Source: Acidimicrobiaceae bacterium (lineage in GTDB: Bacteria > Actinomycetota > Acidimicrobiia > Acidimicrobiales > Aldehydirespiratoraceae). From it: a DNA stretch of 64,000 nucleotides. The DNA lies in contig VXYK01000055.1 of assembly GCA_009845995.1 (NCBI GenBank), forward strand, positions 188,721-252,720. The letters are read 5' to 3'. This document shows, piece after piece, positions 6,096 to 7,025 of this stretch. The position numbers and the translations under genes are program-made. The notes beneath the pieces were generated by a model. It did no database searches. It was not told where the DNA came from and worked only from the letters and a program-made list of their open reading frames with translations. Numbering within the stretch: position 1 is the first letter of the stretch; every line of letters begins with the position of its first letter.

Positions 6096-7025
6096 ATGAC
6101 CACACACCGCGCCGTCGAGGGATGGGGAGTCCTCGAACGCGCGGTCGAACTCGCGGAGAGCGGCGAACCATTCGTACTCGCCACCGTCGTGTGGCGCGAG
6201 GGGCCGTCTTCGGGCCAACAGGGTTCGCGGGCGATCTACACCGCTTCGGGACAGATGCACGGCTGGATCGGAGGCGCGTGTGCCGAACCGGTGTTCATCC
6301 GTGAGGCCAAGGCCGTCCTGTCCGCGGGCCAGCCTCGCCTGTTGGCGCTCGGAGCCGAGGAGCGCTTCGGCGACCTGCCGCAGGGCACCGAGGCGATTGC
6401 CATGTCGTGTCAGAGCGAAGGTGCTCTGCAGATCTATCTGGAGCCCGTCGTGCCGGTACCTCATCTCGTCATCGTCGGCGATTCACCCATGGCCACAAGC
6501 CTCGCCGGCATGGCCGCCACGCTCGACTGGCGGGTCGAGCAACTCGCAGGCACCGAGTTCAGCGAAGGTCTCGTCGGTGAGTCGTCGATCGTCGTGGTCG
6601 CGACCCAGGGCCACGGCGATGAGGACGTCATCACCGCAGCCCTGAAAGCCTCGCCGGCGTACCTCGGCGTCGTCGCCTCGTCGAGGCGGGCCGACAGCCT
6701 CCGGGCGTATCTTGGTGAGGCGGGCGTGTGCGGCGGAACGATCGCCGGACTCCGGATGCCCGCGGGGCTCGACCTCGGCAGCACCACCCACAAGGAGGTG
6801 GCCGTCGCCATCCTGGCCGAACTGGTGCAACTGCGTGCCGAGGGTGCCTTCACCTCGAGCGAGGCTGTTGACGCCCCCGACGTGCCGACTGCCGTCGACC
6901 CGGTTTGCGGCATGACCGTTGATGCGGCCGACACGAGCCATTCCCTCGAAGTCGACGGGGAGACCTTCTACTTCTGCTGTCCAGGGTGCCGGGCTGCTTA
7001 TGCCGACGAACGAGGAGTGAGCTGA
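6096..7025 (+). CDS. XdhC/CoxF-like maturation protein with C-terminal YHS/TRASH-type metal-binding domain
   Basis: ATG 6096, in frame within ORF 5838..7025. [22 protein letters not shown] and [11 protein letters not shown] are XdhC-like. C-terminus is [38 protein letters not shown]. Confidence 0.75.
   Translation: [309 protein letters not shown]

Follow-up and report, generated by a model that had tools for sequence, protein, structure and literature searches.

In a 64,000-nucleotide stretch of DNA from an Acidimicrobiaceae bacterium (assembly GCA_009845995.1, contig VXYK01000055.1, positions 188,721 to 252,720; the whole stretch is called the window below), CoxF, the XdhC-type maturation factor encoded beside the large subunit of a form-I carbon monoxide (CO) dehydrogenase, ends in a YHS domain. 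The window locus is not peculiar in this respect: Actinomycetota normally have CoxF in this fused form, and the fusion is widespread across nine or more further phyla. The XdhC-YHS fusion is specific to the helper of the copper enzyme, although the YHS domain itself is not restricted to copper proteins. The tail offers one Asp and three Cys residues as candidate metal ligands, and we rate the chances as about even that it is a tethered Cu(I) site feeding the sulfurated molybdenum centre of the large subunit, CoxL.

To our knowledge, the sole model of copper insertion into the Mo-S-Cu centre is that of Pelzmann et al. 2014, which relies on short motifs in a CoxF without a recognisable metal-binding domain. 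Sulfuration in Oligotropha carboxidovorans depends on CoxD and persists in coxE and coxF mutants, whose CO dehydrogenase is sulfurated and copper-free (PMC4240915). CoxF was proposed as the copper supplier from an internal motif and a putative phytase motif, with no dedicated metal-binding domain, and the MCPSHG sequence of O. carboxidovorans CoxF was regarded as a putative copper site (PMC4240915). The original prediction, made for the window from its letters alone, held that a YHS/TRASH-type tail on a CoxF-like protein might explain how copper reaches the apo-enzyme. The notion of CoxF as supplier is thus not new, whereas the YHS tail stands as a concrete candidate for the site itself.

The window CoxF has 309 residues. 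Its reading frame is open upstream into coxL, and the likely start is the ATG at 6096, 8 nucleotides past the coxL stop codon; nucleotides 6897-7025 of the forward strand encode the peptide quoted in the original prediction, up to the TGA stop. Pfam recognises both domains of the XdhC core (see the table), which matches the solved structures 2WE7 (E 1.5e-12) and 3ON5 (E 1.9e-6). The same two-domain core is found in Rhodobacter capsulatus XdhC and its relatives (2WE7/2WE8, 3ON5), a family with a general role in maturation of xanthine-oxidase-family enzymes. In contrast to CoxF, R. capsulatus-type XdhC proteins have clients without copper and lack a YHS tail, and such paralogues were tail-less in all genomes sampled. 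In characterised relatives the core holds or protects the sulfurated molybdenum cofactor and acts on the apo-enzyme. Two core cysteines, Cys62 in the XdhC_CoxI domain and Cys105 (MSCQSEG; nucleotides 6408-6410) just 5' of the XdhC_C domain, are invariant in alignment A1, a set of 68 homologues that are 31-54% identical to the window CoxF, and neither was used in selecting the sequences. Cys105 aligns with the MCPSHG motif of O. carboxidovorans CoxF. Beyond the core lies a flexible linker whose length varies among homologues, leaving large gaps in A1.

Taken alone, the tail is a borderline match to its Pfam family. Residues 267-302 score 30.3 bits against PF04945 (YHS; E 4.2e-7), exactly at the gathering cut-off of 30.3, and residues 270-304 score 27.1 bits against PF24273 (TRASH_HVO_1752_C; cut-off 27). 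The borderline YHS score is not due to chance, because all 68 of the diverse A1 homologues match PF04945, the best with an E-value of 4e-34. Profile searching thus recognises the tail as YHS/TRASH, in agreement with the original prediction. A profile made from the 68 tails gives 74 bits on the window tail, which is itself one of the 68 rows. Pfam returned no PF00403 (HMA/CopZ-type) match on the window CoxF. The canonical TRASH motif, C-x2-C-x19-22-C-x3-C, does not describe the tail, as Asp268 occupies the first position, and on this pattern the tail is better filed as a YHS subtype than as a canonical TRASH domain.

The candidate metal ligands are D268, C271, C294 and C298, arranged as D-x2-C-x22-C-x3-C, and M273 and C295 lie close to them. 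In A1, 66 of the 68 sequences have D268, whose column was not used for selection. C271, C294 and C298 are kept in all 68; their columns and that of M273 belonged to the pattern by which A1 was selected, which makes invariance at these positions circular. Further conserved columns of the tail are P269, V275 and F302 (65/68 each, the last being Tyr in the window protein), G288 (57/68) and F293, and C295 is Cys in 49 of the 68. M273 was considered as an invariant ligand and rejected. Its invariance in A1 comes partly from the selection pattern, and an exhaustive representative search, in which the tail was present in approximately 98 of the 150 best 50%-identity clusters, gave about five tail-bearing clusters with Val or Ile in its place. 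Met is therefore not an obligatory ligand.

The ligand spacing equals that of a YHS domain that responds to copper. The class IIIc adenylyl cyclase of Mycobacterium phlei is specifically activated by copper through a C-terminal YHS domain, with D178, C181, C204 and C208 as the proposed ligands (Linder 2015, PMC4626032). This domain is likewise actinobacterial, C-terminal and carried on a short linker, and its D-x2-C-x22-C-x3-C spacing is identical to that of the window tail, which argues for copper binding by CoxF. The comparison also raises a second reading, in which the tail would be a copper sensor or gate. Copper would then switch on the XdhC core, for example by releasing or exposing the sulfurated molybdenum site only in the presence of copper, and would itself arrive by another route. 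The only biochemically studied C-terminal YHS domain is indeed a copper-specific activator of its fused enzyme (PMC4626032), and both the domain order and the ligand spacing of the M. phlei cyclase recur in CoxF. The M. phlei domain sits as a sensor on a signalling enzyme and transfers no metal to a client. A dedicated sensor on a maturation factor, however, is without precedent known to us, and the phenotype of coxE and coxF mutants is simply a lack of copper (PMC4240915). We consider a sensing role quite improbable.

Structural modelling suggests a small, well-ordered module. AlphaFold2 run on A1 predicts the whole protein with a mean predicted local distance difference test (pLDDT) score of 92.1, with values of 87-96 in the tail and 66 at linker residues 251-260, and the tail modelled alone reaches 94.5. 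The confidently predicted fold of the tail consists of strands at residues 265-267, 274-276, 283-286 and 289-292, followed by a helix at 296-306. Its best Foldseek matches in the PDB are ribosomal eL24/L24e proteins, with query-normalised template modelling (TM) scores of 0.60-0.74 and a non-significant E-value of about 0.4. The 68-tail profile gives weak matches to solved structures, namely phenol hydroxylase PHN (E 0.0015), L24e (E 0.005) and Ta0938 (E 0.06), and a single-sequence search of the PDB with the tail returned only chance-level Kaiso zinc-finger matches. As far as Ettema et al. (2003) is represented in PMC4626032, the TRASH domain and L24e have a small ribbon fold, which the window tail may share, whereas canonical TRASH has four cysteines (C-x2-C...C-x3-C) and the window tail has Asp first.

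Such relatives give rise to the main rival of the copper-donor reading. The tail may be a structural zinc ribbon, binding zinc or nothing, that serves as a docking or oligomerisation module for apo-CoxL, for CoxE/CoxD or for membrane stalk proteins. Its predicted fold and its profile do resemble L24e-type ribbons and the C-terminus of phenol hydroxylase, and Deinococcus-type tails keep the fold-defining residues with the first Cys gone. YHS domains are also appended to TreT and to an ABC ATPase with no evident copper link, and most proteobacterial CoxF proteins do without the tail. A structural ribbon would nevertheless leave unexplained why the tail occurs only on the XdhC protein of the copper enzyme, never on paralogues beside other molybdoenzymes, and why its Asp and three Cys are spaced as in a copper-responsive YHS domain. 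On balance we judge this role unlikely, if a serious contender.

The association with the copper enzyme was examined in two surveys. The first comprised 87 loci, of which seven are from plasmids and 80 from species genomes retrieved via a 12-sequence alignment; one retrieval pattern was taken from the tail, so the 80-locus sample is biased towards tail-bearing genes. These 80 loci span Actinomycetota, Chloroflexota, Acidobacteriota, Dormibacterota, Methylomirabilota, Myxococcota, Deinococcota, Pseudomonadota, Vulcanimicrobiota and Thermoplasmatota. The 87 loci hold 77 tail-bearing XdhC open reading frames (ORFs). A large subunit is in view for 65 of them, and for 64 of these the nearest one has an AYxCSFR active-site loop, AYACSFR and AYSCSFR being counted as variants; the other 12 ORFs are on fragments too short to include a large subunit. 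None of the approximately 20 second XdhC paralogues (CoxI-like) in the 87 loci has a tail. Locus L032 was weighed as a counter-example and set aside: its nearest large subunit is of the AYRGAGR type, but its contig ends just past the downstream coxM, and its relative L030 has the same arrangement with a form-I coxL next. Plasmid records of Thermomicrobium roseum, a Deinococcus, the archaeon Natronorubrum bangense and Paraburkholderia aromaticivorans place the tail beside an AYRCSFR large subunit annotated as "aerobic carbon-monoxide dehydrogenase large subunit", and in an unannotated Caballeronia record (L009) the tail adjoins an AYRCSFM loop. Three very divergent XdhC-YHS fusions lie beside coxG or within a coxS-L-D-E-G cluster.

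Because the 80-locus sample was partly retrieved through the tail, a second, less biased survey covered 301 Actinomycetota genomes drawn evenly (the counts include the unpublished genomes G088 and G120). Form-I coxL (TIGR02416 above cut-off) is present in 63 of them, a tail-bearing XdhC (profile A1 reaching the tail) also in 63, and both in 58. Among the five genomes with a tail and no scored coxL, three have coxL cut by a contig end, one starts a contig and one, G287, has a frameshifted coxL. G287 was consequently rejected as a counter-example, as the adjoining coxL has an AYRCSFR loop and is split over three frames. Three of the five genomes with coxL and no tail are cut by contig ends, and the other two, of one genus, have a genuinely tail-less CoxF (L093). 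Directly beside form-I coxL, mostly less than 100 nucleotides downstream, lie 57 of the 63 tail-bearing genes; contig breaks prevented placement of the remaining six. Profile A1 also has more than 200 other XdhC matches in the 301 genomes, and these end short of the tail. Linkage of the tail to AYxCSFR-type coxL is thus near-exclusive, and neither survey revealed an XdhC-YHS fusion beside a non-copper molybdoenzyme, in keeping with the tie to copper that the original prediction had drawn.

The YHS domain has a wider distribution than the fusion. Of the 301 genomes, 138 have YHS-like domains by the tail-only profile; apart from the CoxF tails, the matches are short ORFs standing alone, frames of approximately 900-1150 amino acids and mid-size frames. 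An XdhC core was found in none of the 20 mid-size YHS-bearing frames fetched. Ten mid-size frames were identified by Pfam as five ArsP-type permeases, two TreT trehalose synthases, one ABC ATPase and two YHS domains alone. In this set (L098-L117), YHS is C-terminal on ArsP_1-type permeases, one of which has two copies, on TreT and on an ABC-transporter ATPase (for example L116:2672-4210 and L103:2934-4349).

Tail-bearing CoxF proteins occur in at least ten phyla, archaea included. The 120 best homologues of the window protein are full-length and come from Acidimicrobiales and other Actinomycetota; many are already tagged PF04945, and the NCBI name for some is "YHS domain-containing protein". 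Public databases hold thousands of sequences with this architecture, of which the window gene is one ordinary member. One protein, P0207 (533 amino acids; L120:318-1919), joins a MocA-like cytidylyltransferase to XdhC and YHS in a triple fusion encoded behind coxS-L-D-E-G, and the other long tail-bearing proteins P0203 and P0253 may resemble it. The third residue of the form-I-type loop differs between loci, giving AYRCSFR, AYACSFR and AYSCSFR (L016, L017, L022, L033; L063-L089; L093, L096). Several actinobacterial loci have two such coxL genes, for example a divergent AYRCSFR/AYSCSFR pair or the AYRCSFR/AYACSFR tandem of L097, and the tail-bearing CoxF, where visible, lies 3' of one of them.

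Several lines of evidence bear on which XdhC paralogue and which enzyme the window encodes. The best match of the protein on plasmid pHCG3 is coxF (280 amino acids), not coxI, with 34% identity over residues 12-256. In a maximum-likelihood tree built from 91 core domains, the CoxF-type proteins (81 rows) form a clade apart from the CoxI-like second paralogues (10 rows), with a Shimodaira-Hasegawa-like approximate likelihood ratio test (SH-aLRT) value of 96, and the window protein falls inside this CoxF-type clade. The neighbouring coxL scores above the cut-off of the form-I family model and has the active-site loop VAYRCSFR at nucleotides 4798-4821. This is the sole AYxCSFR loop in the 3.26-megabase genome, which also encodes one AYRGAGR enzyme and four to five further family members. 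The operon is identified by sequence as one for a form-I (Mo-S-Cu) CO dehydrogenase, with the window gene as its CoxF orthologue; the original prediction had likewise described a CoxF-like XdhC gene between coxL and coxG, next to a form-I enzyme. In this tree, which is a quick one with skewed sampling, the tail is found in every deep branch of the CoxF-type clade, and tail-less forms make up one proteobacterial subclade only, apart from two frameshift artefacts. This distribution fits a tail that would be ancestral to CoxF and lost in one proteobacterial subclade.

A mechanism can be proposed in which CoxF works as two modules, an XdhC core and a YHS domain joined by a flexible linker of approximately 20 residues. 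The tail, with its predicted zinc-ribbon-like fold of four strands plus a helix, would present the Asp-Cys-Cys-Cys site D268, C271, C294 and C298. The tethered site would capture Cu(I) and pass it to the already sulfurated molybdenum centre of CoxL, as the last maturation step and together with CoxD and CoxE. A similar logic is seen in UreE, HypB, CooJ and CCS, metalloenzyme maturation factors with a flexible, ligand-rich extension that stores or passes metal; these differ from CoxF in that their folds are unrelated, their ligands are His-rich or CXC and they lie outside the XdhC family. The genomic setting also favours delivery by the tail. A profile search of the genome found three XdhC genes and one YHS domain, the window tail, and a PF00403 search of the genome detected no stand-alone CopZ-type chaperone. 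The single PF00403 (HMA) match in the genome (C20:70012-70188, outside the window) lies inside a 710-residue frame that is probably a P-type ATPase. We infer both copper as the metal of the tail and transfer, rather than sensing or structural use, as its function.

Cysteine-rich tails of this kind could in principle handle sulfur rather than copper, acting as a persulfide carrier for the bridging sulfide of the Mo-S-Cu cluster. XdhC proteins are tied to cofactor sulfuration (PMC4240915), and the tail has three to four cysteines. In O. carboxidovorans, however, it is CoxD that sulfuration needs, and mutants in coxE or coxF remain capable of it (PMC4240915). Moreover, the YHS/TRASH fold clusters its cysteines in one metal site and exposes no single reactive Cys, and no tail is present on the XdhC paralogues that serve other sulfurated molybdoenzymes. 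We give a sulfur relay very little credence.

Several observations weigh against copper delivery by the tail. The YHS domain is not exclusive to copper proteins, and within the same phylum it is carried by ArsP-type permeases, an ABC ATPase and a trehalose synthase. The YHS domain in the toluene hydroxylase crystal carries no bound metal, and L24e binds cadmium via four cysteines (Linder 2015, PMC4626032). The only solved relatives reached by profile are phenol hydroxylase PHN, L24e and Ta0938, with the weak E-values given above. Among the tail-bearing clusters, a Deinococcus-type subgroup (2 of approximately 98) lacks both C271 and M273, and the Val or Ile at M273 in about five clusters adds to this variation. 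Finally, 16 of 251 Pseudomonadota genomes have a CoxF-type gene, and only 3 of the 16 have the tail. As the other 13 are tail-less, and as O. carboxidovorans CoxF itself has no tail, the tail is not essential for copper insertion.

The CoxF of O. carboxidovorans OM5 (pHCG3; L011:8983-9825) shares the XdhC_CoxI and XdhC_C core and the conserved core cysteines with the window protein and likewise lies in a form-I cox cluster with coxD, coxE and coxG. It ends just past the core in a basic RRHGQRQ, whereas the window protein continues into the YHS domain. Gene order also differs, being coxL-D-E-F-G in O. carboxidovorans and coxL-F-G in the window, where coxD and coxE are divergent. In a broader proposal, the tail would be a dedicated Cu(I) chaperone module for the Mo-S-Cu site that is ancestral to CoxF, that has been kept wherever the form-I enzyme occurs outside most Proteobacteria and that was lost in the lineage of the model organism; we hold this proposal tentatively, at somewhat less than an even chance.

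Other CoxF-type genes have unusual ends. Three beta- and gammaproteobacterial proteins without YHS (L084, L085 and L090, whose primary XdhC ORFs start at locus position 10001) end in CCGS/SCCGG motifs that could be an alternative thiol-rich tail. Convergent Cys-rich tails were considered as a general feature of tail-less CoxF on account of these CCGG-type ends and rejected, as they occur in 0 of the 13 tail-less proteins of the less biased Pseudomonadota sample. A Natronorubrum protein (L007:8959-10098) has SCCGGG in its linker. On a Rhizobium jaguaris plasmid (L010, approximately 9001-9951 and beyond) the CoxF-type ORF seems to run into a CoxG-like (SRPBCC) part, not a YHS domain. In L135 (G379:C5:92000-94200, minus strand) a CoxF-type gene stops at an in-frame TGA that is followed by a YHS-like Cys-rich stretch (C-TGA-C-M ... 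FYQCSPRC); the tail may have decayed, the TGA may encode selenocysteine, or the sequence may contain an error.

The features of the window are listed in the table. The stop codon of coxF and the ATG of coxG overlap as TGATG, with a GAGGAG motif upstream, and this overlap suggests translational coupling of the two genes. The real start of coxE is probably near 11056, where coxD ends. A small minus-strand ORF is listed between coxD and the second XdhC paralogue. Pfam and alignment bear out the statement in the original prediction that this paralogue has no tail. Pfam finds only the Rossmann domain in it and no XdhC_CoxI match, and it lacks both core cysteines (the equivalents of Cys62 and Cys105) that are invariant in CoxF-type proteins. 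The MobA/MocA-like enzyme likely makes the cytosine dinucleotide form of the cofactor. Outside the window, the third XdhC gene of the genome (G000:C55:108361-111795, L001) has a CoxE-like VWA gene on one side and a CoxG-like gene on the other, lies approximately 6 kilobases from another xanthine-oxidase-family large subunit and has no YHS. This region looks like a second maturation set for an enzyme other than form I.

Table. Coordinates of the cox genes, coxF domains and neighbouring genes in the window
Feature	Position	Strand	Basis
coxM, FAD-binding medium subunit	2272..3144	+	Pfam FAD_binding_5, CO_deh_flav_C
coxS, [2Fe-2S] small subunit	3146..3706	+	Pfam Fer2_2, Fer2; start at ATG 3146, just past the coxM stop
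coxL, form-I Mo-Cu CO dehydrogenase large subunit	3706..6087	+	TIGR02416, 1111.5 bits (cut-off 991)
coxF-type XdhC maturation factor with C-terminal YHS domain, 309 amino acids	6096..7025	+	ORF and Pfam, pHCG3 match, tree
XdhC_CoxI N-terminal domain, residues 20-83, with Cys62	6153..6344	+	Pfam PF02625, 63.9 bits (cut-off 24.3)
XdhC_C Rossmann domain, residues 124-243	6465..6824	+	Pfam PF13478, 76.2 bits (cut-off 29.7)
Flexible linker, residues 244-266	6825..6893	+	pLDDT dip, large gaps in A1
YHS tail, residues 267-309 and stop codon	6894..7025	+	PF04945, PF24273, A1 column counts, AlphaFold2
coxG, SRPBCC fold	7025..7618	+	Pfam COXG
coxE, VWA domain	9882..11312 (longest ORF)	-	Pfam VWA_CoxE, 167.5 bits
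coxD, MoxR-type AAA+ ATPase	11053..11946	-	Pfam AAA_5, AAA
Second XdhC paralogue, no YHS tail	12266..13141	-	Pfam, alignment
MobA/MocA-like nucleotidyltransferase	13175..13792	+	Pfam NTP_transf_3, 121.7 bits

Overall, the original prediction is partly supported: all of its points that could be checked computationally held, while copper specificity is a matter that we infer. The searchable literature, a scope that leaves out subscription-only papers, contains no mention of an XdhC/CoxF-YHS fusion. It appears to be unreported that CoxF of form-I enzymes normally has a YHS domain, that the domain is exclusive to the XdhC paralogue of the copper enzyme and that the model organism is the exception.

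Aerobic CO dehydrogenases drive the consumption of atmospheric CO by soil and marine bacteria. A conserved Asp-Cys3 module, which almost every copper-enzyme CoxF sampled from Actinomycetota has and which is also common in nine or more further phyla, makes the question of copper delivery to these enzymes directly testable, and the finding suggests which accessory gene to choose for heterologous expression of the active enzyme. If the tail is indeed an ancestral, dedicated chaperone, its loss in the lineage of the model organism would be the reason that it went unnoticed, and a CoxF with the tail would be what has been missing for assembling active aerobic CO dehydrogenase in vitro and in heterologous hosts.

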